Source: a virus | Taxonomy: Duplodnaviria; Caudoviricetes | Length of the DNA stretch: 64,000 bases | IMG/VR virus record: IMGVR_UViG_3300005937_000199 | Span: 8,950 to 72,949 of that record | Strand: one strand, 5' to 3' | Shown: positions 1,012 through 64,000 of the stretch, piece after piece | Numbering within the stretch: position 1 is the stretch's first letter | Layout of the letters: each line of letters starts with the position of its first letter | Translations under genes and position numbers: made by a program | Notes under the pieces: model-generated | What the model saw: only the letters and a program-made list of their open reading frames with translations | Database searches by the model: none | What the model was told of the DNA's origin: nothing

Positions 1012-1299
1012 ATGGCACAAGCAACCGATCCTCGTCTCGCGGAGCTTGAGCAGCGCCGCGAGGCGAATGTCGGCAAGCAGATTGACAATGCCAGTCTGTA
1101 CGCCGGATCACCGATGCACTACTACTGCCACTGCTGCGGTGCCCACACGGCTACGCTGCCGGAGGGCTGGTGGGAGAACCCGCCGCCGAAGTTCTGCGCC
1201 AACTGCAAGGATCTGATCAGCGACGGCGTGATCAGCCAGCCCGAGGCCAACTACGACGACTGGCTCAAGGAGCACGATCACCCTCCGGTGCCACGATGA
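1012..1299 (+). CDS. small Zn-finger-like protein
   Basis: CHCCG and CANC cysteine pairs. Confidence 0.75.
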   Translation: MAQATDPRLAELEQRREANVGKQIDNASLYAGSPMHYYCHCCGAHTATLPEGWWENPPPKFCANCKDLISDGVISQPEANYDDWLKEHDHPPVPR

Positions 1300-1706
1300 G
1301 CGACGACATCATCGTTCCCCGGCACCACTACGACGCCCTGATCAACGCCGCCAGCCAGCTTGTCACTGTCGCGAACAACGCGGTGGAGACGATCCTCAGC
1401 GAGACGCCGTACGAGTCGATGCTGCGGGGACCGGCCGAGGCGCTGAACGATGCGCTGAAGAACGTGCCGGGGGCTGACAAGTGGGATGGCAGTTGGAGTG
1501 AGGACGACGTGGAGTACGAGTCGTTCCGTCACCACTCCCAGCCGGAGCGCAGCGGTCCCAGCGTCGGCGTCAAGGCCACTCACCGGCCCACCGGCCTGTC
1601 AGTCGAGAGCTACATGAAGCCGAGTGCCGATGCCAACCAGGCGAGCGCTCTGCGGTCGCTCAAGGGCCGTGTGGAGCGCTACGTGGCTGAACACGGTACC
1701 TTGTAG
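1296..1706 (+). CDS. protein with a peptide-chain release factor domain-3-like C-terminus lacking GGQ
   Basis: ATGA overlap start at 1296. DDVEYESFR...VGVKATHRPTGLSVES...ANQASALRSLKGRV aligns by eye to RF1 DLRIDTFR...AIRITHLPTGIVVEC...KNKAKALSVLGARI. Confidence 0.65.
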   Translation: MSDDIIVPRHHYDALINAASQLVTVANNAVETILSETPYESMLRGPAEALNDALKNVPGADKWDGSWSEDDVEYESFRHHSQPERSGPSVGVKATHRPTGLSVESYMKPSADANQASALRSLKGRVERYVAEHGTL

Positions 1707-1748
1707 TACACTGGACACACCGTCCTCAGTGACGGTGTTGTCAACGGC

Positions 1749-2395: not shown

Positions 2396-2434
2396 CGCTT
2401 TCACCTACGGCACCAGGCGAGGCCGCGTCGTACT

Positions 2435-2452: not shown

Positions 2453-2462
2453 TCTCACCGGC

Positions 2463-3062
2463 CTATCTACGTGGCCTGTAGCCACAGACCGGCCAAGGAC
2501 TTGCGCCCTCGCGAGCGTACAGGATGGCAGCACGCTTGTCTTGTTCTGCTGGGCTGGCATTGGCGGGGTTTCCTGTACCGCCGACCGACTGCCAGGTTGA
2601 TTGGGTGAACTGGTAGGCCCCGTAGAAGCCGTTGCCAGTGTTCGTGCTGTAGTTGCCACCCGATTCACAAGCTCGGATGGATGCTAGGACACCTCCGGCA
2701 CCAGCCCTCAGGGTGCGCGTGCTCGAAGGCGGGACGTAGGGCCGACCGGCTCGCAGCATCGTGCTGCCGTGGTACCTCATCCCTCGCAGGATGCGCAGGG
2801 ACTTGGCAATGTGTCGGCACTTCGACTTCCGTGTCTCGCTCAGCCCCCACTTCCGGATATTCCGTCCCGGCGCTTGTTTGCCATGGAGCTTGGCGACAGC
2901 GTGATAGTTCGCGCTGTAGTTGGTGAGCAGCTTGTTAGCGCTGCACGTGTTGCGCTTCTGCTTGGCATCAGCCACACCAGGCGCAAGTGCCACTGCGACC
3001 GACATCGCAATAGCAGTTAGGGTTGTACGCATAACAGCTTCCCCTGACATCTCTCCTGCCAT
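2463..3062 (-). CDS. rpf: secreted resuscitation-promoting factor (Rpf)-family lytic transglycosylase; start may be 3032
   Basis: C-terminal ASIRACESGGNYSTNTGNGFYGAYQFTQSTWQSVGG...SPAEQDKRAAILYAREGASPWPVCG is the Rpf domain with its catalytic Glu; N-terminal signal peptide ending ADA-K. Confidence 0.92.
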   Translation of the reverse strand: MAGEMSGEAVMRTTLTAIAMSVAVALAPGVADAKQKRNTCSANKLLTNYSANYHAVAKLHGKQAPGRNIRKWGLSETRKSKCRHIAKSLRILRGMRYHGSTMLRAGRPYVPPSSTRTLRAGAGGVLASIRACESGGNYSTNTGNGFYGAYQFTQSTWQSVGGTGNPANASPAEQDKRAAILYAREGASPWPVCGYRPRR

Positions 3063-3226: not shown

Positions 3227-3460
3227 CTAGCGAGCGCCGGTCAGATCGCCAAGCTCAGCCAGAGGGAGCGGCCGAGCGAGTAGGTCACGGATCTGTTCGA
3301 CGGTCAGTCCGGTCACCGCCGACACCTCGTTGATCGAGCAGCCATGGAACCGGACGGCCTGCACAATTCCGCGCTCCAGAGCCGAACGCTCGGTCTGCGC
3401 CCGGACTTCGGCGCGGATCAGCGTGTGGGACTGCGAGGTGAGGACATCCAAGACGGTCAT
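3227..3460 (-). CDS. small HTH DNA-binding protein
   Basis: Likely ATG at 3460; GCSINEVSAVTGLTVEQIRDLL is HTH-like; TAGGAT -10 box upstream. Confidence 0.65.
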   Translation of the reverse strand: MTVLDVLTSQSHTLIRAEVRAQTERSALERGIVQAVRFHGCSINEVSAVTGLTVEQIRDLLARPLPLAELGDLTGAR

Positions 3461-3525
3461 GGTGGTTGTCACTCTACATGATCCTAGCCTGTTTTGTCCA
3501 GATTCCGGGGCCACAAAAGCCTCCT

Positions 3526-3538
3526 AAGTTGGCAACTT
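3526..3538. promoter_or_regulatory. 13-bp palindrome AAGTTGGCAACTT in the divergent promoter region (candidate operator)
   Basis: Perfect inverted repeat around a central base, between TAGGAT -10 boxes on opposite strands (3480-3485 minus; 3578-3583 plus). Confidence 0.5.
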
Positions 3539-3589: not shown

Positions 3590-3919
3590 GTGATGGCCAC
3601 CGCCGAGGGTCACGAGGAGTCCATCGTTCTCAGCCGAGGCCGCTTGCGGTGCCCGCACTGTGAGCAGATCGGCAGGTACCCCGGCGATTTCAAGGCGCTT
3701 GACCTCAACGAGAAGTACAAAGACGATCTCAACCCGGTTTACAAGCACATGGGCTGCGGCCACGTGTTCTCGCCGGGTGACCCGTTGATCATCCAGCAGT
3801 ACATAACAGGTCAACTGGTACCGAGATCGGCGTATGAGGATCTTCAGCGCACGGTGGCCCGACTTGAGGCAATCGTCGGTGCGATACCGATCCAAGGAGA
3901 AGGGAGGACAGCAGCATGA
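3590..3919 (+). CDS. Zn-ribbon hypothetical protein; first gene of the structural operon
   Basis: CPHC and HMGC motifs; TAGGAT 7 nt upstream suggests a leaderless start. Confidence 0.75.
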   Translation: MMATAEGHEESIVLSRGRLRCPHCEQIGRYPGDFKALDLNEKYKDDLNPVYKHMGCGHVFSPGDPLIIQQYITGQLVPRSAYEDLQRTVARLEAIVGAIPIQGEGRTAA

Positions 3920-5289
3920 CGCTTGACACGAGCGAGCGTCACCCCATCTGCCTGATCCTGAACTTCGCGTCCACGGACGTGGAGGAAGGGAAGCTGGGCG
4001 ATGACACGGTGCTGTGGAAGGACCTGATGGCCGAGGGTATGGTTGCCCGCACGCCTGGCATGAAGGAGAAGGTCCCCTTCAAGGTCATCCACACCGGCCG
4101 CTCGTCGTCTCGTAATGGCAGCATCACTGTCAGCATGAGTGACCTGTGCGAAGCGTTCGACGCCAAGGCGTTCCAGGACGTGACGATTCCGGACGGGCAC
4201 CCCAAGCCCGACAAGGTGCTCCCTGACGGGCGTGTCATCAAGGGTGACAGCGCGCTCAACAACACAGGCTACGTCCGTGGCCTGCGCGTCGTCCAGAAGA
4301 CGGTCAAGGGTGGTCCGCAGGATGGCAAGGAGATTCACGTCCTCCAGGCCGGACTCGGATTCACGGAGCCGGAGGTCGCGGCCAAGGTGCGGCGGGGCAG
4401 CGTCCCCAATGTGTCAGCCGGTGTGTACTTCGACTTCGTGCGCAAGGCCGACGACCGCTACTTCCGGGCGGCGCTGAACCACGCGGCGCTTACCAAGCAG
4501 CCGTGGATGCAGGATCTCGAACCGTTCGAGCGCGTCTACTTCGCGGACGGCGAGGACGAGTACGTGGTCCAGGAGCTTCTTCTGGACGAAGACAAGCAGG
4601 ATGGCAACGACGCCAAGGTCATCTGGAACGATGCGGTTGCGGCCAACTCGATTCGCCAGCAGATCTCAGGCTTCCTCAACCCCCAGCCATCCCCGGAGGA
4701 GCAGGCCATCGGCGTGCCGGAACGCCCACGAGCCTTCTACTACGTCGAGGACGTGACCCACGACGAGCCGAATCTGGCCCGCGTGGAGGAGTCCTACCGG
4801 GGGAAGACCACCAACTTCGTTGTCCCCTACTCGGTGGACGACGATGGCAAGGTCACTGTCTCGCCGCAGGCCCACTGGCAAGAGGGCAAGCAGGCGATGA
4901 TCGCGGCCAGCGACCCCGATGACAACCTGGAGCGTTTCCAGGAGCGAAGCGTCGAGGCAACCCGAGAGCGGCTGGTCGTTGCTCTCGATGATCTGTTCGG
5001 TGAGGGCCACAAGCTCGTCGTCGGGCAGATGTCGATGGATGGGCGTGCGCTGATCCGCAACTCCACGACGGGTGCCGAGCACCTGGCGCGGTTCCGCGAG
5101 GTCGGTGCCCATGCCTACTTCACTGACACCGCTGACTGGACGACGGTGAAGCTGCCGTCCAGCAACAGGCCGGATGTCACTCCGGCTGCGCCGCCGCCCA
5201 CCACCGAGGTGACGTTCGATCTGAACACACCCGAGGGTCGGGTGGCCGCTGCACGCCAACGGCGAGCCAAGCTCGCCCCGAACCAGTAG
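3916..5289 (+). CDS. capsid maturation protease (Mu gpI-like)
   Basis: Position before scaffold and capsid; VPNVSAGV...LNHAALTKQPWMQDLEP resembles the Mu I protease HxALTNxP motif. Confidence 0.65.
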   Translation: MTLDTSERHPICLILNFASTDVEEGKLGDDTVLWKDLMAEGMVARTPGMKEKVPFKVIHTGRSSSRNGSITVSMSDLCEAFDAKAFQDVTIPDGHPKPDKVLPDGRVIKGDSALNNTGYVRGLRVVQKTVKGGPQDGKEIHVLQAGLGFTEPEVAAKVRRGSVPNVSAGVYFDFVRKADDRYFRAALNHAALTKQPWMQDLEPFERVYFADGEDEYVVQELLLDEDKQDGNDAKVIWNDAVAANSIRQQISGFLNPQPSPEEQAIGVPERPRAFYYVEDVTHDEPNLARVEESYRGKTTNFVVPYSVDDDGKVTVSPQAHWQEGKQAMIAASDPDDNLERFQERSVEATRERLVVALDDLFGEGHKLVVGQMSMDGRALIRNSTTGAEHLARFREVGAHAYFTDTADWTTVKLPSSNRPDVTPAAPPPTTEVTFDLNTPEGRVAAARQRRAKLAPNQ

Positions 5290-5306
5290 CAAGGAGGTGG
5301 ACATAA

Positions 5307-5885
5307 GTGGGAATCCTGGAGACGATTGACGCGCTGAACCTCACCGACGACGAGAAGTCTCGCCTGCGGAGGGAGTACGGCGAGGAGGTCGATCCCCTGC
5401 GGACGGAGGTCGGCACGCTGCGGACCAACGACCGGCGCGAGAAGGTCAGGACTGACATCCTGGCGCTCAGCGAGGCCGGTTTCAAGGACGCGCCAGCCGC
5501 CTTGGCATTCGTGCGACGGCTGTACCTGTCGCCCGATGCGGAGGAGCCGGGAGTGGTCCTGTTCGCGGATCACGAACTCGGCCTGACGGGCGAAGAGGCG
5601 ACCGGCGCGCACGCCCGCGAGGAGATGTCAGTCAAGGGGGCATTCGAGAAGTTCTTCTCGCTCCTCCCGCGCGACAAGGACGGCAAGCTCAAGGTCCAAC
5701 TGTCGGACCAGGGCACCGTCACCGACGACCACGGCCGTCCCAAGACCGGCGACGACGTGGCCGACGCCGAGGCCAACACCGCCGAGCACAAGTCGTCGCT
5801 CGGCAAGGCGATTGGCACCACCATCGGCCGTCCGTCGCGTGAGAAGCGCTACGGCGGTCGCTATTCCTCCGGGGGCGGTGAGTAG
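5307..5885 (+). CDS. probable capsid scaffolding protein
   Basis: Acidic and helical; between protease and decoration gene; AGGAGG RBS. Confidence 0.55.
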   Translation: MGILETIDALNLTDDEKSRLRREYGEEVDPLRTEVGTLRTNDRREKVRTDILALSEAGFKDAPAALAFVRRLYLSPDAEEPGVVLFADHELGLTGEEATGAHAREEMSVKGAFEKFFSLLPRDKDGKLKVQLSDQGTVTDDHGRPKTGDDVADAEANTAEHKSSLGKAIGTTIGRPSREKRYGGRYSSGGGE

Positions 5886-5888
5886 CAA

Positions 5889-6269
5889 GTGGCCTGGAAC
5901 ATTCGCACCGCTCGCGCCACCGGCAACGACCTGGAGATCCTGGTCAACCAGGTCAACGTCGATGTCGCGGCTTCCGTCGTGCTCGACGCCGGGGCTGTCA
6001 CCCCGGACGGCGTGACTGGTGAGCGCAAGCTCGTCGCCGGGACGCCGCTCAAGAAGGTCGGCAACCAGTACGTCCCGTGCGCCGCTGACGGTGCCGGGTG
6101 CCTTGGCATCCTGGCTCGTACCGAGGTGTTCCCGGACGGCACGGCGCAGTCCGACCTTCCGTCCGCGATGTGGCACCACGGCCAGTGGTTCCGCACCGAC
6201 CGCATCGTCAACTGGGCGACGGCGCAGGCCAACATCAAGGCCGCGCTGCCGACCTGCAAGTTCTCCTAG
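5889..6269 (+). CDS. capsid decoration protein (lambda gpD-like)
   Basis: 126 aa with AGTPLKKVGNQYVP...LGIL pattern, directly before the major capsid gene. Confidence 0.7.
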   Translation: MAWNIRTARATGNDLEILVNQVNVDVAASVVLDAGAVTPDGVTGERKLVAGTPLKKVGNQYVPCAADGAGCLGILARTEVFPDGTAQSDLPSAMWHHGQWFRTDRIVNWATAQANIKAALPTCKFS

Positions 6270-6288
6270 AAGGGAGGTGACAAGTTAG

Positions 6289-7350
6289 ATGGCAGTCATT
6301 GACGACATCATGGATCAGGCAACGCTGACGGACGCAATCGTCGGCCCGGTCGAGACGGAGATGGAGACGATGCCGTTCATCGGGGAGCAGATCGCCCCGA
6401 TGACCGAGACGGACTCGCAGTACGTCTCCATGACGGTGGAGGACTACTACGCCACCGGCATCGGCCAGTTCCGCGCGCCCGAAGCGTCGATCCCGCTGAT
6501 GGACATCACCGGCCGGGAGGAGCGCGAAGAGGTCATCGAGTTGGCATATCTCGATGAGGCCCATCGCATCTCTCCCCGTCGCTGGGAGATCCTGACGCAA
6601 GGCGGCGAGAAGCTGGCAGGCCGTGAGGCCCGCCGCCTGATCGAGATCGGCCAGATCCTCGAACGGCGCAACGAGCGCCTGACCGAGTGGATGCGCTGGC
6701 AGTCGTTCTCCGGCCAGATCACCATCGAATACCAACTCCGTGACACGGCGCTGGTCATCGACTACCCGTTCGCGGCCGGTCACAAGCCGACTGCTGCGGT
6801 GCCGTGGACCGATCTGGTCAACGCCGATCCGGTCAACGACCTGAAGGTGTGGCTGAAGCAGGTCAGCACCGACTCCGGCTCGCCTGGCAGGCGGGTGCAC
6901 ATCTCCGACGACGACATCGAACTGATCCTGACCAACCAGAAGCTCCCCGCGTACTTCAACGTGGAGCCGGGTCAGCCGTTCATGCCGACGCTCGAAGACG
7001 TGGGCAAGCTGCTGCCGCCCGGTACCGTGTTCGTGCCGACGAACCACGGCTACCGCACCGAGGACAAGGGCGCGTCGAAGCGCCCGCAGGACCACAACCG
7101 GTACCTGCCCATCGGCAAGGTGCTTGTCACCACCGACTACTCGATTCAGGGCTACGGCGTCATCGCTGAGACGCTGAACGGCCCGGTCGAGATCAAGTCC
7201 GGCCCGAACGACACGGTGTTCCTGCCGGGTCCGCAGTCGGAGATCATCCTGAAGGGCGAGGGCGTCTACACGCGCCTGCTCCGTCAGGCCAGCCGTCGCA
7301 TCGTGCGCCTCAAGGTCCCCGAGGCGTTCCTCTACGCGACCGTCCGCTAG
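6289..7350 (+). CDS. major capsid protein (gpE-like)
   Basis: 353 aa; GGAGGT RBS; RRNERLTEWMRWQSFSG and ADPVNDLKVW resemble major capsid E family; synteny. Confidence 0.85.
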   Translation: MAVIDDIMDQATLTDAIVGPVETEMETMPFIGEQIAPMTETDSQYVSMTVEDYYATGIGQFRAPEASIPLMDITGREEREEVIELAYLDEAHRISPRRWEILTQGGEKLAGREARRLIEIGQILERRNERLTEWMRWQSFSGQITIEYQLRDTALVIDYPFAAGHKPTAAVPWTDLVNADPVNDLKVWLKQVSTDSGSPGRRVHISDDDIELILTNQKLPAYFNVEPGQPFMPTLEDVGKLLPPGTVFVPTNHGYRTEDKGASKRPQDHNRYLPIGKVLVTTDYSIQGYGVIAETLNGPVEIKSGPNDTVFLPGPQSEIILKGEGVYTRLLRQASRRIVRLKVPEAFLYATVR

Positions 7351-7369
7351 GAAGGGGGTGACAACAAAC

Positions 7370-8083
7370 ATGTCAGATAGCAAGGGCTTCGAGGTGCTGG
7401 TGGACGAACTCACGATCCACAAGGCCGTGCGCCAACTCCAGCACCCGATCACCGGGGAGCCGATGGGCTTCCAGCAGGGCAACGGCGAGACGTGGTTCCT
7501 GGGCGAAGTCGTCCCGGCCGAAGCGATCAACCCGGAGTGGGTCGAGGCGCTGGAGTCCGGCGAGGGTGCGCTGTACGACTCCCTCAAGGACAAGCTCGCG
7601 CCGTCGTCCGAGGAACCGGCTGTCTCCGACGCCGTGCGAATGGGGATGCCATTCGAGGGCTACGAGGAGATGGACGAGGACGACATCCTGGCTGCCATGA
7701 ACGTGCTGCCTTCGGCGGCGGTCATGCGGATCAGGGAGTGGGAGTCCCGGCACCAGAACCGCGACGAGATCGTCAACTACAACGCGGGCTACCGCGTCTC
7801 TCCCAATGCCTACCAGGAGGGCAAGGTCCCTGGTGGCAGCGACGAGGCCGAGGGCGACGAGTCCAAGGCCGTGCGTGCGATCCGTACGCGCCAGGTCGTG
7901 GAAGGCGAGGCGACCGTTCCCGGCGAGGGCTTCACCGGCACGGGCGACCCCGCCGTCGCACCGGGCACGGCAGCCGCCGCCGAGGAGGACGACAAGCCGA
8001 AGTCAACGCGCCGCGCCGGTCGCAGGCCGCGCCCCGCGCCGAAGCAGCAGCCCGCCTCCTCCGAGGGCGGCGGCGGCTCGTAG
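7370..8083 (+). CDS. hypothetical protein (acidic, A/P/R-rich tail)
   Basis: ORF after the capsid gene with RBS. Confidence 0.75.
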   Translation: MSDSKGFEVLVDELTIHKAVRQLQHPITGEPMGFQQGNGETWFLGEVVPAEAINPEWVEALESGEGALYDSLKDKLAPSSEEPAVSDAVRMGMPFEGYEEMDEDDILAAMNVLPSAAVMRIREWESRHQNRDEIVNYNAGYRVSPNAYQEGKVPGGSDEAEGDESKAVRAIRTRQVVEGEATVPGEGFTGTGDPAVAPGTAAAAEEDDKPKSTRRAGRRPRPAPKQQPASSEGGGGS

Positions 8084-8111
8084 GGCGTTCTGCCAAGGGA
8101 GTTGACAAGCC

Positions 8112-8669
8112 ATGCCTGACGAACCCGAGTACACACCAGCGGACGAGATCGAAGCCGGAGCGCGGGACGAGCTTCCCGAGACGTTTGACGCTCTGGTTGA
8201 CTCGCCGCACTTCGGGCCGGAGGGCCTGGCGCGTCGCAAGTCCCTTGTCATGGCGCGCATTTGGGGCCGTGAACTGGACGAGACGGAGATCGAGGGCCTT
8301 GACGTGCGGGTGCAAGCCTATGCGTCGAAGCATCTCGCTCGCCAACTGATCGGACCAGGGATCGACTACTGGGCGGCGCAGGTGCTCTCCCAGTCCGCTG
8401 GCACGACCGAGCAGGTCAGCTATGACGCTCAGCGGATTCAAGCGCTCAAGGACGCTGACAAGCGCCTTGCTGCGGAGATCGCGGAGTTGCTTGGCGACGT
8501 GGAGGCCATCCTCCCGCCAGTCAAGTTGACACCGGGGGCTGCACCAATCGTCGGCCAGGCAGGCAAGCTGGGTACCGTGGGCGCTCTGGACGGGATGTAT
8601 ACGCCAGACCCATTCGACCTGCCGCCTGTCTACGCCCCGACCGAGACGGAGACGACGGGGACGGCGTAA
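8112..8669 (+). CDS. probable head-tail adaptor
   Basis: Size and synteny only. Confidence 0.45.
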   Translation: MPDEPEYTPADEIEAGARDELPETFDALVDSPHFGPEGLARRKSLVMARIWGRELDETEIEGLDVRVQAYASKHLARQLIGPGIDYWAAQVLSQSAGTTEQVSYDAQRIQALKDADKRLAAEIAELLGDVEAILPPVKLTPGAAPIVGQAGKLGTVGALDGMYTPDPFDLPPVYAPTETETTGTA

Positions 8670-9268
8670 TGCCAATCGTCTCTACAAACATCGACGCGGA
8701 GGCGATGCTCGATGACATCGAGATGGTCCTCCAAGACGGTCTGAACGAGGCTCTAGTAGTCGTGTATGCAAACCTCGAAGCTCGGGATCAAGCGCGTGCA
8801 GAACGCCGAGGGATCGAGTACGTGCCCCTGACGTACGCCGATGTTCCGAACGACCACTATCACGTGGGCAACTTCCCCCGCCAAGTGCTGAAGGACGTAC
8901 CAGCCGAGTTGTACCCCTACATCGTGCTTGCCGTCGAGGACATGGTGCCGGACGCCGAGAGTGCCAACCAGGACCACATGAGTGTGTTCAGGCAGCAACT
9001 CGCCGTCCACAGCCTGGCCAACGCGAGCGAGGAGGAGGGGTCGGAGGTCGTCTACCGGCGCGCTCTACGGATGGGAGTGGCGGTGCACACCGTCCTGATG
9101 AGCAATTCGGTGACAAGCCGAATGCTGTCAGGCGTGGTGAACCCTGCCCGGAACCAGGCATCGATCCCGTGGACCTATCGCGAAGGTGGGCGCAATGAGA
9201 ACCGCGCTTGGTATCAGGCGGTTGGCCTCAGCTACGCGATCAAGCTCTACACGAGTCGCTTCGGCTAG
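8669..9268 (+). CDS. probable tail terminator or head-tail joining protein
   Basis: LYPYIVLAVE motif; synteny before the major tail gene. Confidence 0.45.
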   Translation: MPIVSTNIDAEAMLDDIEMVLQDGLNEALVVVYANLEARDQARAERRGIEYVPLTYADVPNDHYHVGNFPRQVLKDVPAELYPYIVLAVEDMVPDAESANQDHMSVFRQQLAVHSLANASEEEGSEVVYRRALRMGVAVHTVLMSNSVTSRMLSGVVNPARNQASIPWTYREGGRNENRAWYQAVGLSYAIKLYTSRFG

Positions 9269-9282
9269 GAGGTGACAAGCAG

Positions 9283-9540
9283 ATGAGCGAATACGTCCTC
9301 AGAGGGTGCGTCCAGCGCGGTCAACGTGTTGGCAGCGTGCTGCTCGGAGAAGGACGCAAGCTAGTCCTCAACGGCGACCCAGTGGAGTTGTCCGACGAGG
9401 AGTACACCAACCTGTCTGCGAGATACCGGCTGGAGCAACAAGCGGCCACCAACTCCGGGCAACCTGACAAGTCGGATGACACTCCGGCTGAAGAACCCAT
9501 CGAAGACTCGATCACCCCTGAGAAGGGAGGTGACAAGTAA
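9283..9540 (+). CDS. small hypothetical protein
   Basis: GGAGGTGACAAG RBS then ATG at 9283. Confidence 0.7.
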   Translation: MSEYVLRGCVQRGQRVGSVLLGEGRKLVLNGDPVELSDEEYTNLSARYRLEQQAATNSGQPDKSDDTPAEEPIEDSITPEKGGDK

Positions 9541-10197
9541 GTGAGCAACTTCTTCCAGAGCCGTCACGGTCTGGACTACGAGCAGGGCTTCATGCAGGGC
9601 GCGGGGCGCATCCTGATCGCGCCTGGCGGCGCGTCAGCGACGTTCCCTGACGCCATCTCGGACATCGTGGACCTGGCAGCGGGAGCGACGATCTACGACG
9701 CGGTGGACCCGTGGGAAGAGGTCGGTTTCACCAAGACCGGCATCAACATCACGCGCAACAACGCCGAGGAGACGTTCACCGTCGATCAGTTGCGGTCGGC
9801 CATCAAGACCAGGCCGTCCAACTGGGAGATGTCGGTTGGCACCCAGCTTGCCGAAACGTCCCTGGAGACGTTCGCGCTGGCCTGGGAGCTTCCCGATCCC
9901 GTGGAGGTCACGGCGGCGGGCGCGGGCACCAAGGGACTCAAGAAGGTTGGCATGGGTGCGCCAACCTCGTACAGCGAGAAGATGCTGTGCGTGCTGTTCC
10001 TCTACCCCGACGACATCGTTCGTGCGTTCGTCTGGCGGCGCTGCCTGCACGCGGCGCAGGAGTCCGGCTTCACGCTCCAGAACACCGGCGAGCAGGTCAG
10101 CCTGCCGTGGCGTCTCAACTGCATGGCAGACGACGAGGCCCCGGACGGCGAGCAGTTCGGCGTGATCTACGAGGAGACACCGGCCACCGGCCCGTAG
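9541..10197 (+). CDS. major tail (tube) protein
   Basis: GAGRILIAP...WEEVGFTKTGINIT...FTVDQ...LAETSLETFALAW is a typical siphovirus tail-tube pattern. Confidence 0.8.
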   Translation: MSNFFQSRHGLDYEQGFMQGAGRILIAPGGASATFPDAISDIVDLAAGATIYDAVDPWEEVGFTKTGINITRNNAEETFTVDQLRSAIKTRPSNWEMSVGTQLAETSLETFALAWELPDPVEVTAAGAGTKGLKKVGMGAPTSYSEKMLCVLFLYPDDIVRAFVWRRCLHAAQESGFTLQNTGEQVSLPWRLNCMADDEAPDGEQFGVIYEETPATGP

Positions 10198-10340
10198 GCC
10201 AACCGGCATGACAGCGTAAGCCACAGGGCAACGCTGAACCACTCAAAGCAAAGGCAATCAGGTGGGCAACAACATGACAACCACACGGAGCGAGGGCGTC
10301 GGGCATGGTGCTCTCGCTCACGTGTGTCAGGGGAGCTGTC

Positions 10341-10829
10341 ATGACTGACTTCATCGAGTTCGAGGTCGATGAGGACGAAGTGATGCGCGGCTTCGACCTT
10401 CAGGAGAAGCTGGTACGAGCGTGGCTGAAGGACTTCATGGGCGACATGGCTGATCTCGGTACCGAGGTCTTGGAGCACTACGCCCCGGAGTGGACCGGCT
10501 ACACGCACCGCCATATCGATCACACATCCTTGCGCTGGCATCCGGGAGGAGCCGGTGGTGGCGGTACCTACGAGATTGTTGTTGGTGTGAAGGCCGGGAC
10601 CAGCTATCACCCGGTCTACCCGAACGTCGGCACCGGCTACTGGGGGCCAACACAGAACCTCATTCGCTCTCCCAAGGGCAACCTGATGTACTTCTACGCC
10701 TCACGCCTGGGGCACGTGATCAGCAAGTACGAAGTCGTCGGCCAGAAGCCGCAGTTCTACCTGTATGACACGTGGCGTGACATGGCGCGCATTCTCGATC
10801 TGCGTTTGTCAACCGAGTTCCTACTGTAA
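10341..10829 (+). CDS. HK97 gp10-like neck/tail-completion protein
   Basis: YAPEWTG and YPNVGTG resemble the gp10-like APVxTG and YVExGT motifs. Confidence 0.55.
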   Translation: MTDFIEFEVDEDEVMRGFDLQEKLVRAWLKDFMGDMADLGTEVLEHYAPEWTGYTHRHIDHTSLRWHPGGAGGGGTYEIVVGVKAGTSYHPVYPNVGTGYWGPTQNLIRSPKGNLMYFYASRLGHVISKYEVVGQKPQFYLYDTWRDMARILDLRLSTEFLL

Positions 10830-10852
10830 ACCGGATCATCAAAGGAGATCCC

Positions 10853-11629
10853 ATGGCAGCAACAACGGAACCCAAGAAGCCAGCAGCGAAGCGCAAGCCG
10901 CTTGCCAAGGATGGCCCGGAGGCCACTCAGGCGGCGAAGGACGCCGAGGCGCTGAACACGCTCGACGGCATGGGCGACACCGCGACCTGGCTCGACAAGC
11001 CGGTTGACGATCTCAGCGAGATCAAGCGCTGGATCATCGGCAAGCCGCCCGAGGAGGGTGGCAAGGACACCGAGTACGCGGTCTACATCCAGCAGCCGCT
11101 TGGCTGGATGGCGCGCAATCGCTTCTTCTCGCTGATCACAGCCGCCTTGTCAAAGGCGATCCGCGCCAGCGGCGGCGAGGTGGCCGGGATGGGCGACATC
11201 TTCGGCAACAACGCTGGCACGATCCGCGAGCGCGGTGCCAGGCTGATGGAGCGCGACTGGCAGGACGCCTCCACCTTCATGACACTGGCAGCCGAACTGT
11301 CAAGCTACGTGCCAGACCTGATGCTGGAGTTCTACTGCATCTGGCTCCAGGTGCCGCCCGGAGAGCGCCCCTGGGCCAAGCTGGTGTTCGAGCAGCCGCA
11401 CGATCCCGAGCGCAACCTGTGGGGGCCGACTGACAGCCAGCATCGCACGATCATCGGCACCTTCATCGACCAGAACTACGAGGGCCTGAGAGAGTTTTTT
11501 ACGACCGACCTGCCAGCAATCGCAAGGCGGGTCGTGGTCAACGAGAGGAATCGACAGGACCGCGAGTCCACATCGGACCAGTCGAAGCCGTCGAACTCGT
11601 CTGGTCCAGTGGTGGAGGTGACAAGCTAG
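10853..11629 (+). CDS. tail assembly chaperone (short form)
   Basis: Located between the tail tube and tape measure genes; contains a slippery T6 run. Confidence 0.75.
   Translation: MAATTEPKKPAAKRKPLAKDGPEATQAAKDAEALNTLDGMGDTATWLDKPVDDLSEIKRWIIGKPPEEGGKDTEYAVYIQQPLGWMARNRFFSLITAALSKAIRASGGEVAGMGDIFGNNAGTIRERGARLMERDWQDASTFMTLAAELSSYVPDLMLEFYCIWLQVPPGERPWAKLVFEQPHDPERNLWGPTDSQHRTIIGTFIDQNYEGLREFFTTDLPAIARRVVVNERNRQDRESTSDQSKPSNSSGPVVEVTS
11494..11500 (+). other. putative -1 programmed frameshift site G-TTT-TTT
   Basis: In-frame GAG TTT TTT ACG in a gene that otherwise favours TTC; the -1 frame is open from here to 12060. Confidence 0.75.
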
Positions 11630-12060
11630 AGGACATCCTCTGCTGGCGCGCGGAGCTATTTGATGCGATCTACGAAGCCATTGTCAAGCGGCGTGCCAGG
11701 GAGGCCGTCGAAGCGCAACGTGACCAGATGGTTGCTGCGCTGTACTCGAACCCGAACTGGGACGAGAGTGGTAATGACAGGCCGGGTCGCATCAAGGAAC
11801 TCAATCGTCACTTCAACAAGACGATTGAACTCATCTACGACCCTGATCTGGATGAGGGCGATGAGCCGGACTGGGACAACCCGTTCTGGCAAGCACATCT
11901 CCGTGGTATGGCTCGCACGCGCGTGCGACTCGGACTGGACAACCCTGACGCCACCGTCAAGGAGGTCATTGACGCCGACGAGGAGCAATCGCGTAGACTA
12001 CGGTTGCTGGAGAACCGCGCCAAGCGGCGTGAGGGACTAGATCAGGTCAACGGTCGTTAG
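11495..12060 (+). CDS. -1-frame extension of the tail assembly chaperone (gpGT-like long form)
   Basis: Stop-free -1 frame reading ...LEDILCWRAELFDAIYEAIVKRRAREAVEAQRDQMVAALYSNPNW... Confidence 0.7.
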
Positions 12061-12087
12061 CAAGCAACATGGCAGAGAGGAGGTGAG

Positions 12088-12324
12088 ATGGTAACCGCAC
12101 GAATGAAGGTGACACGGATCACCCCGATGGGCGATCCCGACAAGCCCTACCAGGTGGAAGTCGAGATGACTCCCGACTATGCCAACGGGGCGAACAAGGA
12201 GTGGTCGCTGGCCACGCCGTCCGGCATGTGTCGGCTGGTGATCGATCCGACCAAGACGGCAGCGTTGGATCAGCTTCCGCTTGGCAAGTCACTTGAATTC
12301 CAGATCGTCCCGAGGGACGACTAG
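12088..12324 (+). CDS. small hypothetical protein (N-x-E-W-x-x-ATPSG motif)
   Basis: GGAGGTG RBS; coding-like codon use. Confidence 0.75.
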   Translation: MVTARMKVTRITPMGDPDKPYQVEVEMTPDYANGANKEWSLATPSGMCRLVIDPTKTAALDQLPLGKSLEFQIVPRDD

Positions 12325-38362: not shown

Positions 38363-38916
38363 TGCAATACAGAACAACATCCGGGCATCATGTCAAGAAG
38401 GTTGGTTTCGCCACGCTGCACATCGATGGCGGCTGTCGGCCGACCAACCCTGGACCGGCGGGGATGGCTGCCGTGGTCAACTTCCCAGCCTACGGCCTGC
38501 ACTACGAACTCGCCCGCCCGCTCGGGATCAAGACCAACAACCAGGCCGAGTACATCGCGCTGATCGTCGGCGTCAAGTACGCCCACACGCTCGGTGCCAA
38601 TGGACTGGACATCTTCACGGACTCGAAGCTGGTGCTGAACCAGATGAAGGATCTCTGGTACATCCGGGAGCGGCGGTTGTACGACCTACGCCACGAGGCA
38701 CGCGGCTGGCTCGACGCGATGTTCGAGAAGAACTGGGAACTGACCTGGATACCGCGCGAGCAGAACACCGAGGCCGATGCACTGTGCACGGAAGCGATCC
38801 TCTGCAACAACCCGTGGATTCCGAACTTCAAGGACCCCTTCCGGCCACCACACAAGCGCTGGTTTCCGCACAACCGGAGTGTGATGATCGAGGTCTGCCT
38901 GCCACATGCCAGGTAG
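38362..38916 (+). CDS. rnhA: ribonuclease HI-family protein
   Basis: IDGGCRPTNPGPAG, TNNQAEYIAL, FTDSKLV and WIPREQNTEADAL motifs. Confidence 0.92.
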   Translation: MQYRTTSGHHVKKVGFATLHIDGGCRPTNPGPAGMAAVVNFPAYGLHYELARPLGIKTNNQAEYIALIVGVKYAHTLGANGLDIFTDSKLVLNQMKDLWYIRERRLYDLRHEARGWLDAMFEKNWELTWIPREQNTEADALCTEAILCNNPWIPNFKDPFRPPHKRWFPHNRSVMIEVCLPHAR

Positions 38917-59014: not shown

Positions 59015-59029
59015 GTACAATGCAGCAGC

Positions 59030-59851
59030 ATGGCAGCGGATCTGGCACCGCAAGACCCTGACAGGGTGGAGAGCATCGGCCTGACGCCGACGCAGATCAA
59101 CGCGCTGGAGAACCTGCACCGCCTAGGCGCGCGGCCCCGTGCCAGCGCCGACGAGAAGTACGACTCAGACCCGCAGGTCCGCGCCCTCCAGATGGTCTAC
59201 GAGGGCAAGTTCGGTGGCGGTCCTCGTAGCCGCGACCGGCAGGAGCGGATCTCAGTTGGGTTGACACAGCACGTCCGCAACAACCTCTCCAAGAAGGTGC
59301 TGCGAGCGCTGGAGCGGGCGCTCAAGCCGGACGCCGGAGAGCGCGTCAATCTCGACGCTATCAAGCTGATTACCACGATTGAGAATCAGGAGGCCAGACT
59401 CCAACTCAGTGAGGATCAGCTTGATCTCGATAACAAGTCGAAGGACGAACTGCTGGCGGTCCTCTTCCAGCTTGTTCAAGACGCACAGACAGGAGCAGTG
59501 ATCGATGCCGCCTTCCGTGACATCCCGGTCGCGAAGCCCCCGTCGGAGGAACGTCTCCTTGCGCTCGATTCACGAGCACGTGAAGCCTCGGCCCAACGGG
59601 ATGAGGCCCGTAGACGCCGAGCGAATCACGGCGGACGACCTGCATCCGTTGTTGCGAGCCGCGAACGCGACCGAGATACATCCAGTGCTGCTGCAAATGG
59701 GGTTGACACTGGAAGTTCTGGATCGAATGGACGAGACGACGCTGAGGGAGATCGTTCGGAGCGTCCAGGTTCTATCTCGGAAGCTACGCTACGACGGGCC
59801 GCAGAACGACGACGAGCTTCACGAGTGGGTAAAGCAGAATCTCCACGTTGA
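59030..59851 (+). CDS. probable terminase small subunit
   Basis: Directly upstream of and overlapping the large subunit gene; TACAAT -10 box at 59016. Confidence 0.5.
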   Translation: MAADLAPQDPDRVESIGLTPTQINALENLHRLGARPRASADEKYDSDPQVRALQMVYEGKFGGGPRSRDRQERISVGLTQHVRNNLSKKVLRALERALKPDAGERVNLDAIKLITTIENQEARLQLSEDQLDLDNKSKDELLAVLFQLVQDAQTGAVIDAAFRDIPVAKPPSEERLLALDSRAREASAQRDEARRRRANHGGRPASVVASRERDRDTSSAAANGVDTGSSGSNGRDDAEGDRSERPGSISEATLRRAAERRRASRVGKAESPR

Positions 59852-61631
59852 CATCCCACGTGTCGCGGTCTGCCCGGACCACGTAGCACCCTTCACCTTC
59901 CTCGCTGATCTCTACTTCGAGCGCACGTCAGCCGCGCTCGCGCTTGCCAATCGTGGTGGCAGCAAGACGTTCATCGTCGCCTGCCTGCACTTCCTCAACT
60001 CAACCTACAAACCCGGTTGCGAGTCGATGTCGTTCGGCGCGACTGAGGGTCAGGGCCAGCGCTGCTATCAGCACATCGAGGACTGGTGCTACAAGCGCGA
60101 CGAGGAGACAGGCCGACGTACAAACGTCGTCAAGGACTTCATTCAGGACAAGCCGCTGAAGTCCCACACGCTGTGGAAGACCGGCTCGCGTGTGGAGGTC
60201 GTTGCCGGTTCTGAGAACGCCGTCTCAGGCCCGCACCCTGCCAAGGCACATGCCGACGAGATCGACATGATGGAGGAGCCGGTCTGGAACCAGTCCCGTG
60301 GTATGGCAGTGTCGCTCCCGGCCAAGGGTCCACTGCCAACCTTCATGGCACACTTCCATGGCGTGATTCCTCCGCAGGACATCGCCACCAGCACCAGGAA
60401 CTCGACCAAGGGCCGGATGCAGACGATCCTGGACGAGATCTTCGATGATATCAAGGCGGGTGACATTCCGCAGTTTGATGTCTACGTGTGGTGCATTTGG
60501 GAGACGGTCGCTGAGGTCCCCAACTGCCAGTGCGCGCCGGAGGCCGAGCGCAGGGCACGGCTCGAACAGCTTGGACTCGACCCCGATAGCAAGTGTGAGT
60601 GTCATCGTGTGGCCAAGGGCCTGTGGGGCATGGATGCTCCGGCAAGCCACTTGGTAGGGGAGCGCCGCCGACTGATCCACGTCTGCGCCATCTACGACGC
60701 CAGCGACCCCACGAATGTCAAGCCGATTGACGGTAAGGCGTTCCACTCACGGGGCTGGAAGCCGTACGTCGATCTGCTCCGAACCTTCAAGCGCAACACG
60801 CCTGGCACTTGGGTGCTTCAGCATGAGTGCCGGGAGGGGCGGGACGAGAACGTCTACATCCCGAACTGGTCACTCGGTGAGTACGGGATCAGGCACTACG
60901 AGCCGCACCCACTCTACGGTCCCATCTACATGGGCGTGGACTGGGGCACTGACCACCCGGCTTGTGTTCTGTGGTTCCAGTATTTGACATGTGAGGTGCC
61001 AGCGCTCGACTTCGAGTACCAGCAGATCTGGCTCCAACCGGGCGGATACGTGCTGTTCAAGGAGATTTACGTTGCTGGAATCTCGACCGAAACTCTTGCC
61101 CAGCGAGTTGTCAACCAAGAGCAGATCTTCCGCGATACCTACGGTCCTGCTTGGATGGTCAAGGGCCGTTTCTGCGACCCCGCAGGGGCCGGAGATCGGC
61201 TCACCTTCGCCAATTACGGGCTGAAGTCGTCCTGGCCCTACAAGACGCGCAACAAGGCGCGTATGATTGAGACGGTTCAGAACCTCGTGATCGATGACAT
61301 GTTCGCGGTCGATGTCGAGTGCGAGATGTTCTGCGAAGAAGTTGAGATCTGGCAGAAGAACCCCAAGACCGACAAGGAACTTGACAAGTTCAACCACGCA
61401 ATGGCTGCCTGGCGCTACGGCATCAGCAATGCCGAGGTGTTGGAGTCGGCCAAGCGTAAGAAGCTGGGTGGCAATCAGCCTACCGTCCAGAGCGGCAGAA
61501 GAGATCGCAAGTTGATTGTCGTATCAGCAACCCAGCGTGCCCCAGTTGCCGAGTACCAGCGCAACTACGGAAGCGTTGCGTTCAGTGGGGGCACTCAAGT
61601 CCATATGGACCCGAGGTTCATGATCAGATGA
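59697..61631 (+). CDS. terL: terminase large subunit; start uncertain (59697 or 59727)
   Basis: ANRGGSKT Walker A, AHADEID Walker B, ATST motif III; nuclease MGVDWG and FCDPAG; followed by the portal gene. Confidence 0.9.
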   Translation: MGLTLEVLDRMDETTLREIVRSVQVLSRKLRYDGPQNDDELHEWVKQNLHVDIPRVAVCPDHVAPFTFLADLYFERTSAALALANRGGSKTFIVACLHFLNSTYKPGCESMSFGATEGQGQRCYQHIEDWCYKRDEETGRRTNVVKDFIQDKPLKSHTLWKTGSRVEVVAGSENAVSGPHPAKAHADEIDMMEEPVWNQSRGMAVSLPAKGPLPTFMAHFHGVIPPQDIATSTRNSTKGRMQTILDEIFDDIKAGDIPQFDVYVWCIWETVAEVPNCQCAPEAERRARLEQLGLDPDSKCECHRVAKGLWGMDAPASHLVGERRRLIHVCAIYDASDPTNVKPIDGKAFHSRGWKPYVDLLRTFKRNTPGTWVLQHECREGRDENVYIPNWSLGEYGIRHYEPHPLYGPIYMGVDWGTDHPACVLWFQYLTCEVPALDFEYQQIWLQPGGYVLFKEIYVAGISTETLAQRVVNQEQIFRDTYGPAWMVKGRFCDPAGAGDRLTFANYGLKSSWPYKTRNKARMIETVQNLVIDDMFAVDVECEMFCEEVEIWQKNPKTDKELDKFNHAMAAWRYGISNAEVLESAKRKKLGGNQPTVQSGRRDRKLIVVSATQRAPVAEYQRNYGSVAFSGGTQVHMDPRFMIR

Positions 61632-61648
61632 CAATGAGGTAGACACCT

Positions 61649-64000
61649 ATGCCGACAACTGCAACCAAGCGAGGATCAGGAGGAGTCTCAGGTCCTTCGT
61701 CAGCCGACATGGCAAGTTCCAAGATCGAGACTACGGTCGCTGATCCCAAGGAACTGGAGAAGATGAAGAAAAGTGTGCTCGGGCCGGAACAGGCTCCTGC
61801 GCTCTCTGAGATGACGCCAGATCAGAACGCCTGGACTCAGTTCCGGGACCAGCTTGGCCCGCCGTTTGACAGCGAGCGTGTCACGATGACCCAGTGCCGT
61901 CAGATCCGTAAGGACCCGATGGTCGCGTTCGGTCTGCACTACCTCAAGGTGCCGCTGGCGAGAGCCGAGTGGCACATCGACGCCCACGACAAGAACGGCC
62001 CGAACCCGCAGATCGCCGCCTTCGTGGACGCCTGCCTGCGCAAGATCTACGCCAGGTTCATCCTGCAAAGGAGCTTGGCAAAGGACTTTGGCTACCAGGG
62101 GATCACCAAGCGCTTCATTTGGGAGAATCCCGGTGGCTTCTACATCGACCCGGAGGCGACCGACCCGACCAAGCAGTTGAAGCCTGCTTGGGATGAGGGC
62201 GAGGTGCTGCCGATCATCTGGAAGCAGCCGGTGGCGCTGCGGCCGGAGACGACGCTGCCGACGTTCGATGAGAAGACCGGTGAGTTCACCGGCATCGCCT
62301 ACACGGCCCCGCAGGGTGTCGGTCGGCGCAAGTCGAGCGGTGGCAAGCAGGGTGGCAAGGCCCAAGGCGTGCAGGAGTACGACATCTACCACTCGTACTG
62401 GGCTGCCAACATGAAGGACGACGAGCACGGCTCAATGTACGGCTACCCGCTCGTTGGCTTCGCCCGCGACTACTGGTGGGCGTACCGCTTCCTGTTCATG
62501 ATGTCCAACCGGGCTTACGAACGGCTGGCCATCCCGCCCGTCCTCGCCTACCACCCGGAGGGCAGCACCCTTGTCGATACCGAGACGCAGGAGATGCGTC
62601 CGAACTGGGAGATTGCCCTGGAGGCTGCGGAGCGACTGCGTAGTAATGCGGTTGCTGCCGTTCCCAGCACCATGGCGACCGCAGGACTCGATGCCTCTGC
62701 CACTCAACGAGAGTGGGACTTCAAGTTCATGGAGACGCCGTACGAGGCGCTGACGGTCTTCAACGAGCGCTTCAACTACCTGAACGTGATGAAGCTGCGC
62801 TCGGTGTGGGTGCCCGAGCTTGCCTTCATCGGTAACGGCGTCGGTGGCAACTCGGCTGGCAACATCGCAGAGCAGATGGCCGAGATGCTGGTCGAGTCGC
62901 AGGCGCTCGACATGGACGAGATCGATGAGGACATCAATCGGCTGTGGATTCCCCAGCTACTCGTCCTCAACTTCCCGGACTTCATCAACAACGGCGGCGT
63001 GGCCAAGAAGGTGTCGCACGGCTTCCGCAAGGAGGACGTGGAGTTCTACAAGCAGATCATCCAGCTACTCGGTCAGACGAATCCCAACCTGCTTGCGCAG
63101 GTCGATCTGGTCGAGATCTTCCGCCGCATCGGGACGCCGCTGAAGTCGCCGGACGCACTGGAAGCGGAGCGCAACCGACTTGCCACTCAGTTGGCAGCGG
63201 GCGCGGCCCCTGGTGTCGAACCGGCGCGCGGTGGCCTCGGCATCGTTCGCAACCCGGCTGCCAATGCGGGTGTCACCAACGGTGGCTCCTCCCCCAACCC
63301 CACGCCGTTCCTCAACGGCAACTCGGCGCTCGGCTTCGAGCAGCCGCAGATGGTCTATGTGTACGGCGGCGAGACGTACTCGGTCGCGGCGCAGTTCGCG
63401 GACGGCGACACCGACGAGTTCCTTGCCAACCTGCCTACCAGCAAGCACTACCAGGACAAGGCGATCCGAGCGCTGATGCTGCAACTGCGGCGGCTGTGGC
63501 TCGGCTACTACCGCAACCTCTTCCCGGAGTTCGCTGCTCACGTCGGCAGCGCTAAACTCGAACTGGCCGATCTCGAACTGAGCGACGAGGAGGTCTACGA
63601 TGGGCCGCTGCTGTCCATCATGTTCGCCAACGGCAATAGCCGCCAGGACAAGGCTCGCCGTGTCACTGCCAAGGTGGCTGACAAGACGGCTCGCTTGCTC
63701 CTGCGTACGTGGGGTCAGTCATCTGAGACGCTGGATGAGCTACGAGATCGCTCCAAGGCAATTCTGAAGAAGGTGCTCGACCGCCAGGTCTTCCTGGACC
63801 TGCACAAGACCAACCTCAAGGCCGACATGGATGCCAAGGCCGATGACATCGAGGACTTCCTCAACAACCAGGTTGGCAGGCTGATCCGGCTCACCCATCG
63901 GACGGTGCGCGACGAGCTTCGCGCCTTCCTGACGGATCAGATCAGGGAGGGCAAGACGGCTGACGAGATCGCGGACGAGATCCGTGCCCACTTCACTGGC
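61649..64000 (+). CDS. portal protein (Mu gp29/DUF935-like) fused to a MuF-like domain; truncated at window end
   Basis: GAGGT RBS; frame open to the window end. GSMYGYPLV...AYERLAIPPVLAYHP portal motif; ends ...TVRDELRAFLTDQIREGKTADEIADEIRAHFTG, a MuF-like pattern. Confidence 0.82.
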   Translation, partial: MPTTATKRGSGGVSGPSSADMASSKIETTVADPKELEKMKKSVLGPEQAPALSEMTPDQNAWTQFRDQLGPPFDSERVTMTQCRQIRKDPMVAFGLHYLKVPLARAEWHIDAHDKNGPNPQIAAFVDACLRKIYARFILQRSLAKDFGYQGITKRFIWENPGGFYIDPEATDPTKQLKPAWDEGEVLPIIWKQPVALRPETTLPTFDEKTGEFTGIAYTAPQGVGRRKSSGGKQGGKAQGVQEYDIYHSYWAANMKDDEHGSMYGYPLVGFARDYWWAYRFLFMMSNRAYERLAIPPVLAYHPEGSTLVDTETQEMRPNWEIALEAAERLRSNAVAAVPSTMATAGLDASATQREWDFKFMETPYEALTVFNERFNYLNVMKLRSVWVPELAFIGNGVGGNSAGNIAEQMAEMLVESQALDMDEIDEDINRLWIPQLLVLNFPDFINNGGVAKKVSHGFRKEDVEFYKQIIQLLGQTNPNLLAQVDLVEIFRRIGTPLKSPDALEAERNRLATQLAAGAAPGVEPARGGLGIVRNPAANAGVTNGGSSPNPTPFLNGNSALGFEQPQMVYVYGGETYSVAAQFADGDTDEFLANLPTSKHYQDKAIRALMLQLRRLWLGYYRNLFPEFAAHVGSAKLELADLELSDEEVYDGPLLSIMFANGNSRQDKARRVTAKVADKTARLLLRTWGQSSETLDELRDRSKAILKKVLDRQVFLDLHKTNLKADMDAKADDIEDFLNNQVGRLIRLTHRTVRDELRAFLTDQIREGKTADEIADEIRAHFTG

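Follow-up and report, generated by a model that had tools for sequence, protein, structure and literature searches.

Introduction

Dispersed repeats, among them the stoperators and the repeats of Cluster O mycobacteriophages, are known in phage genomes, but they are rare and most are functionally unexplained. Here we characterize a dispersed 17-bp palindromic site, TGNCA-N7-TGNCA, in a 64,000-nucleotide stretch of DNA (hereafter the window) from the Caudoviricetes record IMGVR_UViG_3300005937_000199. The genome (G000) is a single 72,949-bp contig, of which the window covers bases 8950–72949; positions refer to the window unless stated otherwise. An initial annotation had drawn attention to an abundant shorter palindrome, TTGNCAA, and had proposed it as a genome-coating site for a dimeric phage or host protein.

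Of the systems described so far, the closest is a 17-bp dyad-symmetric repeat in Cluster O mycobacteriophages, TGTTCGGNNNCCGAACA, which has 14 invariant bases and is present in approximately 34 copies, about two-thirds of them intergenic or near gene starts (PMC4351075). A dimeric binding protein was predicted for it in that study, with no function assigned (PMC4351075). Like these repeats, the site described here is carried by an actinobacteriophage, spans 17 bp, is dyad-symmetric, occurs in tens of copies throughout the genome, lies partly in genes and is not bound to promoters. Instead of invariant 7-bp arms, however, it consists of two 5-bp palindromes separated by a free 7-bp spacer, with eight specified bases in all. 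It also differs in that about three-quarters of the sites occupy synonymous positions in genes, in its large halo of partial sites and in its turnover between relatives. Corndog, a Cluster O phage, shows no TGNCA-N7 excess.

Cluster A stoperators, to which the initial annotation had compared the repeats, are asymmetric sites of 13–14 bp, recognised by a monomeric repressor, that work by terminating transcription elongation (PMC9283540). The analogy is a loose one: both systems comprise many dispersed sites, some of them inside genes, and stoperators act collectively, but stoperators are oriented and high in information, whereas the present site is symmetric, orientation-independent and low in information. 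In the operators of the ribbon-helix-helix proteins Arc, Mnt and MetJ, and in that of AbrB (TGGNA-N5-TGGNA), short subsites are each occupied by a symmetric dimer, binding is cooperative and roughly one turn of the helix separates the centres of the subsites. The resemblance is in geometry only, as those are single operators at the promoters of the regulators themselves, as opposed to approximately 70 sites per genome here. Restriction avoidance, on the other hand, removes sites, whereas TGNCA and TGNCA-N7-TGNCA are enriched, and their variation among relatives does not follow that of the avoided palindromes. No report of TTGNCAA or TGNCA-N7-TGNCA as a phage motif was found in the literature.

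Results and Discussion

TGNCA units are paired at a fixed distance of 12 nucleotides

The contig was compared with G001, a complete relative from IMG/VR (112,874 bp, with terminal repeats) that is collinear with it at approximately 79% nucleotide identity, and with further metagenomic relatives (L043 to L048). The bipartite site is its own reverse complement, with eight specified bases in 17 bp. It occurs in 62 perfect copies in the window, versus 6.5 at in-phase control spacers (4–9 copies each for N4, N10, N13 and N16), and sequences matching seven of the eight bases were likewise more frequent than at control spacers (184 versus 75). The perfect sites, and a triple among them, are the following.

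65–63848, unstranded: bipartite set, 62 perfect copies, 17 bp each
Starts of sites 1–21: 65, 794, 1475, 3045, 4116, 4233, 6278, 7359, 8091, 9465, 10325, 10766, 11286, 11298, 11682, 12364, 15280, 16066, 16378, 19627, 20659
Starts of sites 22–42: 21570, 23814, 24093, 24843, 25221, 27269, 27689, 28670, 29120, 29843, 30206, 30539, 32342, 33113, 33632, 34618, 38159, 39040, 41636, 42218, 43757
Starts of sites 43–62: 45193, 45424, 46323, 46965, 48814, 49128, 53807, 55457, 56226, 56762, 59031, 59945, 60334, 60985, 61867, 62341, 62845, 63259, 63667, 63832
11286–11314: triple TGNCA with a 12-nt period (TGGCA-N7-TGTCA-N7-TGCCA)

The preference for this spacer is common to both genomes. When spacers of 0 to 30 were scanned without correction, N7 yielded 73 pairs in G000 and 77 in G001, and no other spacer exceeded 17 and 28, respectively; against the in-phase spacers, the Poisson probabilities of the N7 counts are 1e-46 and 5e-26. 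The autocorrelation of TGNCA displays a single spike, at 12 nt (56 versus 7.9 in G000 and 65 versus 9.2 in G001), and codon-context-preserving shuffles generate far fewer N7 pairs than observed (48 versus 5.7 and 59 versus 8.3). CA-Nk-TG is enriched at k = 7 only (1.4-fold, z 10–12). When every pair of trinucleotides was scanned without bias at spacers of 0–20, the top-ranking pair in the two genomes combined was CAA-N5-TTG, which is the inner part of the bipartite site.

Enrichment is graded with the completeness of the site. All four dinucleotides together are enriched 8.5-fold in G000 and 7.1-fold in G001, three of the four 1.4–3.7-fold and a lone TGNCA 1.2–1.3-fold, with most combinations of one or two scattered elements falling below 1. 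A perfect partner at +/-12 nt accompanies approximately 20% of TGNCA units, and a three-of-four partner a further 24–33%, whether or not the unit is part of TTGNCAA. In the symmetrised logo, the spacer is free except for slight preferences for A following the first unit and T preceding the second. Longer arrays with the 12-nt period are limited to a few triples, with no excess at 24 nt. A shorter arrangement with a 6-nt period, TGNCA-N1-TGNCA (for example at 1082–1094), is raised in G000 (17 versus approximately 4–9 at other in-phase spacers) and much more weakly in G001.

Silent codon choices favour the TGNCA core

All 16 xTGNCAy words occur at or above expectation, approximately 1.5-fold jointly, and TTGNCAA, at 1.76-fold, is unexceptional among them. 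Compared with context-preserving synonymous shuffles, both codon phases that leave a silent choice contain an excess of TGNCA, with 456 versus 286 and 127 versus 81 copies in G000 and 748 versus 461 and 223 versus 120 in G001 (z 5.8–17). Six other 2-N-2 palindromes did not exceed the same shuffles. A local concentration of the core that had been noted at 32041–33600 was recovered, with 24 copies versus 5.4 at zero order.

The same preference is visible in individual codons. T was chosen over C in 46–63% of codons before GNC-A, compared with 26–40% before GNC-[CGT], in three independent codon classes of both genomes (odds ratios 2.1–2.8, p <= 2e-6), where codon pairs whose C form is an avoided hexamer were treated as a class of their own. 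Among four-fold codons, T was used in 48–49% before GNC-A, 24–33% before GNC-[CGT] and 16–24% before GNG, alike in G000 and G001. TG-Nk-CA is enriched at k = 1 only and is flat at the in-phase values k = 4, 7 and 10, which excludes an artefact of regional codon style. This explanation, and that of local AT-richness, were also rejected on other grounds: the coupling between T and A is seen only if the middle codon ends in C, and shuffling within genes gave the same answer. The enrichment of TGNCA is thus a signal at the level of DNA and not of translation, as the initial annotation had suspected.

Sites are spread over the genome and maintained as a density

Perfect sites occur at approximately one per kb, accompanied by approximately 2.5 near-sites (7 of 8 bases) per kb. 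Their placement along both genomes is Poisson-like, with gap coefficients of variation of 0.89–1.0, and no regular spacing was seen, the gaps being those of random placement. About three-quarters of the sites lie in genes and are mostly built from third codon positions, while non-coding DNA, 9% of the genome, contains or overlaps 17 of the 73. In G001, sites are present in both + and - gene blocks. A few overlap ribosome-binding regions and start codons; one of these, and a site shared with G001, are given here.

6278–6294: bipartite site over the start codon and ribosome-binding region of the gene for the major capsid protein; local sequence GGGAGG-TGACA-AGTTAGA-TGGCA
49128–49144: bipartite site TGGCAGGGATCTTGGCA in the DnaE-type polymerase gene, identical in G001 and including the TTGGCAA at 49139

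The right-hand TG of the 6278 site forms part of the capsid ATG at 6289, in a gene that matches Pfam Phage_cap_E. An exact 12-mer, GGAGGTGACAAG, in which a Shine-Dalgarno sequence is fused to TGACAAG, has four copies near structural genes (6273, 9268, 9526 and 11614), and the copy at 6273 supplies the TGACA left half of this site.

When perfect sites of G000 were aligned to G001, 15 of 39 were still perfect, compared with a neutral expectation of approximately 4. Third-position T and C within xTGNCAx were kept in 75% and 82% of cases, versus 49–59% at comparable positions outside the motif. Judged from these alignments, each site is weakly constrained while the overall density is maintained. 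Fragments of close relatives also show the N7 excess, as do two relatives with 60–65% TerL identity (12 versus 1–3 and 7 versus 1–2), and it was absent in two low-GC relatives. L045 and L046 score positive for N7 over control spacers, and L047 and L048 score negative at a similar TerL distance.

Occurrence in host DNA was approached through the Rpf (transglycosylase-like) domain encoded at 2463–3062 (-), which is up to 86% identical to domains in Solirubrobacteraceae and Thermoleophilaceae metagenome-assembled genomes. Because of this similarity the host is probably a soil member of Thermoleophilia, an assignment that we take as a lead, short of demonstration; no tRNA genes that could serve as a host clue were found. 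Five Solirubrobacterales/Thermoleophilia genomes (2.7–3.6 Mb) carry 2–18 bipartite sites each, with no N7 excess over N4 or N10, as well as 21–194 copies of TTGNCAA and 4,265–12,319 of TCGNCGA per genome. Avoidance of the bipartite site by the host was not seen: in all five genomes, N7 counts resemble those at N4 and N10. Among unrelated actinophages, N7 pairs number 0 per 50 kb in Sujidade and 3 per 50 kb in Corndog. The initial annotation had named a shared enrichment in the host and in unrelated phages of the same host as evidence against its proposal, and the signal is absent from the five host-lineage genomes and from both phages. In a Solirubrobacteraceae genome, G003, a 14–16 bp palindrome, (T)TGACAACGTTGTCA(A), occurs at least 10 times and accounts for most of the 27 TTGNCAA copies; it looks like a family of host operators.

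A putative two-fold symmetric reader

TGNCA-N7-TGNCA is a selected, dyad-symmetric, bipartite pattern of double-stranded DNA with cooperative half-sites, in agreement with the earlier proposal of a dyad-symmetric, genome-wide signal. Short palindromes with an unspecified centre are targets of two-fold symmetric protein modules, and operators of tetrameric ribbon-helix-helix proteins have 11–12 bp between subsite centres. The most likely reading is that the dispersed sites are bound by a two-fold symmetric oligomeric protein, a putative reader to which we give about an even chance. Each 5-bp palindrome would accommodate one symmetric module, whose axis would pass through the unspecified base pair at its centre, and two modules would be in contact across 12 bp, approximately one helical turn, on the same face of the helix, such that binding by the oligomer would be cooperative. 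This geometry would be that of a dimer of dimers, as in Arc/Mnt-type ribbon-helix-helix and AbrB-type regulators, although paired helix-turn-helix (HTH) modules would be equally possible.

The sites are evenly spread, each shows weak conservation, and candidate host DNA contains very few of them; their function is therefore probably collective and specific to phage DNA, with control of individual promoters being unlikely. Such a collective role could consist of coating, compaction, silencing, protection or self-marking. This scarcity in candidate host DNA also makes a phage-encoded binder more likely than a host-encoded one. A bolder proposal, which we regard as possible yet rather doubtful, is that a clade of uncultured soil actinophages of approximately 110 kb, with probable hosts in Thermoleophilia, tags its whole genome with this low-information palindrome through silent codons, at hundreds of times the density in host DNA. 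A putative phage protein would use the tag to tell phage from host DNA, in the service of protection, compaction, silencing, or replication and packaging. Self marks known in phages are chemical, consisting of base modification; a sequence-based mark would be a novel viral means of marking self if a reader does distinguish phage DNA from that of the host.

Four HTH genes had been suggested as binders from the sequence, and Pfam gave a solid HTH family match for one of them, the gene at 2117. This candidate and a second, which adjoins a 13-bp palindrome described below, are as follows.

2117–2395, +: candidate binder, 92-aa HTH protein of the LuxR/GerE and sigma-70 region-4 type
3227–3514, -: candidate regulator, 95 aa, next to the 13-bp palindrome, with sub-threshold winged-helix/HTH matches

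The first matches Pfam GerE (8.9e-08) and Sigma70_r4_2 (1.3e-07) and the PHROG 'sigma factor' (1.5e-05). Matches of the second to DprA_WH (0.0034) and Sigma70_r4 (0.0051) are both below the curated Pfam cut-offs.

Several observations speak against this explanation. Pfam and PHROG scans of approximately 20 small window proteins revealed no ribbon-helix-helix or AbrB domain, and six-frame searches of G000 and G001 revealed no RHH_1 and no HU/IHF. Eight specified bases are low information for a specific regulator. Per-site conservation is modest, the specified bases diverging by 18% compared with 21–25% in shifted controls; this fits many weak sites and may also fit sequence-biased mutation or repair. 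In addition, the host assignment is tentative, depending on a single Rpf domain similarity, and the genomes are all metagenomic assemblies.

The pattern itself has implications for the study of phage genomes. A dispersed site can be almost invisible, being degenerate and hidden in synonymous positions, and yet be statistically overwhelming, and this one is kept as a genome property across a phage clade. A 17-bp duplex, together with spacer and TG/CA mutants, would provide a precise bait for a reader protein among mostly orphan genes, and the combination of context-preserving codon shuffles and spacer scans can be transferred to other viral genomes.

DNA modification and host proteins as alternatives

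TGNCA could alternatively be the target of a methyltransferase or another base-modifying enzyme, with selection for many modifiable sites, an explanation that we consider improbable. A 5-bp palindrome with an N at its centre is typical of Type II recognition sites, and TGNCA fits this form; it is also an orphan methylated motif elsewhere, having been reported as methylated, without a known methyltransferase, in marine metagenomes (PMC8919816). However, six-frame searches of G000 and G001 revealed no PF01555 (N6/N4) or PF00145 (C5) methyltransferase, Dam-type families not having been searched. The benefit of enriching a modification site is not obvious, and cooperative pairing at 12 nt would be unexpected for a Type II methyltransferase.

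A similarly small chance is given to a host protein, either an HU/IHF-like bender or sigma region 4 of RNA polymerase, as the reader of the sites. The kinks in HU/IHF complexes are 9 bp apart, as are the flexible CA and TG steps of CA-N7-TG, and the phage has no HU gene. For sigma, TTGNCA matches the actinobacterial -35 hexamer, being the sigma-A -35 consensus in Corynebacterium (PMC3890552). Against both stands the scarcity of the sites in candidate host genomes, which show no N7 preference: a host protein reading them would be nearly without targets of its own. In addition, paired sites do not require the 5' T, any base is tolerated at the centre, and the logos, which extend 12–14 nt past the motifs and so cover only part of the -10 window (16–19 bp downstream), contain no further conserved position. 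A promoter reading was rejected on these last observations and on the location of most sites in genes.

TTGNCAA, codon context and palindrome avoidance

The palindrome that had first been noticed, TTGNCAA, is strongly over-represented in raw counts. Its distribution, and two longer palindromes built on it, are given here.

1082–63429, unstranded: TTGNCAA set, 67 copies, 20% with a perfect TGNCA partner and 33% with a 3-of-4 partner
3526–3538: 13-bp palindrome AAGTTGGCAACTT, between the divergent genes 3227–3514 (-) and 3590–3919 (+)
61377–61391: 15-bp palindrome GAACTTGACAAGTTC, in the large terminase gene

The count of 67 adds one overlooked copy, at 53806, to an otherwise correct list of 66, and compares with 8.4 +/- 2.8 (maximum 19) in dinucleotide-preserving shuffles. 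In the 72,949-bp genome TTGNCAA has the largest excess of all 64 XYZ-N-Z'Y'X' palindromes (69 versus 9.2 at zero order), and in the main gene block of G001 it ranks first among 4096 3-N-3 words (87 versus 37, z 9.9). The extension to STTGNCAAS is present in 42 of the 67 copies, and the 13-bp and 15-bp palindromes are there as described. The core of the former is kept in G001 as AGGTTGGCAACTT, and the central 13 compared bases of the latter are identical in G001. As it has no TGNCA partner at +/-12 nt, the palindrome at 3526–3538 may be a separate operator.

Much of this prominence has an ordinary origin. The frame NTT|GNC|AAN holds 53–54 TTGNCAA copies genome-wide, nearly all inside the window. 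T-ending codons are uncommon, as the initial annotation had remarked (CTT 14%, GTT 17%, ATT 14% and TTT 9% of the codons for their amino acids), and follow a general rule, being used in 20–45% of cases before G and 2–15% before A or T. The 60 copies observed in genes compare with 13 by plain synonymous shuffling, and with 26 when the next base is kept, 34 for the next two bases, 35.5 for the amino-acid pair and 43 for the tripeptide context. About half of the excess is thus an effect of codon frame and context. The codon-preserving shuffles, which had been suggested as a check, reduce the raw 8-fold excess to approximately 1.7-fold (z 4–5 in G000), yet the count stays outside every shuffle distribution. 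A second codon frame is also enriched (5 versus 1.3 in G000, 16 versus 3.4 in G001). The idea that TTGNCAA is itself the functional unit did not hold: it behaves like other xTGNCAy words, with a 1.5–2-fold residual and a perfect partner at 12 nt in 20% of cases, and its prominence is due to codon structure. It is the commonest coding form of a single TGNCA, composed of a T-ending Leu, Val, Ile or Phe codon, GNC, and a Lys or Asn codon.

The genome is in addition depleted of many palindromes. GCCGGC, GGATCC, GACGTC, GTCGAC, CTCGAG, CTGCAG, CCGCGG, CAGCTG, GCATGC and CGATCG have zero copies, with 10–64 expected from context-preserving codon shuffles, and GGCGCC (1 copy), TCGNCGA (1) and CCGNCGG (6) are nearly absent. 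The single TCGNCGA, for which the same shuffles predict 55–70 copies, is located as follows.

33796–33802 (genome 42745–42751): TCGTCGA, the sole TCGNCGA of the 72.9-kb genome

TCGNCGG and CCGNCGA, the non-palindromic hybrids, occur as often as expected, the avoidance being confined to palindromic forms, and the purged set varies by relative, with 111 copies of CGATCG in G001 and 56 of GCCGGC in L046. As only palindromic forms are missing and the purged set differs between relatives, the purge bears the signature of restriction avoidance, independent of the enriched bipartite site. The analysis thereby separates this site from an unusually heavy, lineage-variable loss of restriction sites.

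It is very unlikely that the enrichment is a by-product, without site function, of codon frame, T-before-G context and this avoidance. Frame and context do lift the TTGNCAA expectation from 8–13 to 34–43; GNC|GNC pairs able to form GTCGAC, GACGTC, GCCGGC or GGCGCC always have T in the first codon, giving TGNC; and TCGNCGA, the C form of TTGNCAA, is nearly absent. However, a residual persists under every context-preserving shuffle (z 5–10), and the dependence on a following A holds in codon classes that cannot form the avoided hexamers. The single-transition neighbours are not enriched (TTGNCGA 38 versus 35, TCGNCAA 55 versus 66), and L043 to L045 retain TCGNCGA and yet have N7 pairs. A 'graveyard' model, in which TTGNCAA arises from TCGNCGA by C-to-T change, was rejected, since derivatives one step away show no enrichment and the two traits are uncoupled among relatives. 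Avoidance rules also give no account of a spike at exactly 12 nt, and the by-product explanation is largely refuted.

Least probable of all is an RNA element, UGNCA-N7-UGNCA, acting as a small hairpin or protein target. In its favour, the sites are nearly all transcribed, two self-complementary pentamers could pair and a few sites overlap ribosome-binding regions and start codons. An RNA or single-stranded DNA hairpin was rejected for lack of covariation (central bases complementary in 19/73 sites with 18.5 expected and in 20/77 with 19.4 expected) and of stem extension by the flanks. On the coding strand, near-sites lacking the left end are as common as those lacking the right, and a single-stranded target would give no reason for a palindromic unit.

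Genome context and additional observations

The IMG/VR record classes the contig as linear and approximately 65% complete. Its GC content is 61.6% and its genes are almost all on the + strand. Recognisable products include the major capsid protein, a tail component, a Mu-type portal, the Rpf-type transglycosylase, a DEAD-box helicase, DnaB, a DnaG-like primase, a DnaE-type polymerase III alpha subunit and a RecA-like protein; neither an immunity repressor nor an integrase could be recognised among the window's genes. No close sequenced phage was matched by megablast, and the best protein identity to sequenced phages is 28–30%, with DnaE less than 30% identical to known phages. A search with the large terminase (59505–61631) revealed a family of more than 100 metagenomic members on contigs of 105–124 kb. 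Several of the terminase homologues in this family are 880–980 aa long, with intein-type Pfam matches (PF14528, PF14890).

A 379-aa protein encoded at 45868–47007 (+) has a weak ThyX-like match only, with genes for dCTP deaminase and dNMP kinase nearby in relatives; the phage may possess an unusual nucleotide metabolism, and hence a modified base. Directly upstream of the replication genes, 38362–38916 (+) encodes an RNase H / RVT_3-type protein, and a small collagen-repeat protein is encoded at 35304–35717 (+).

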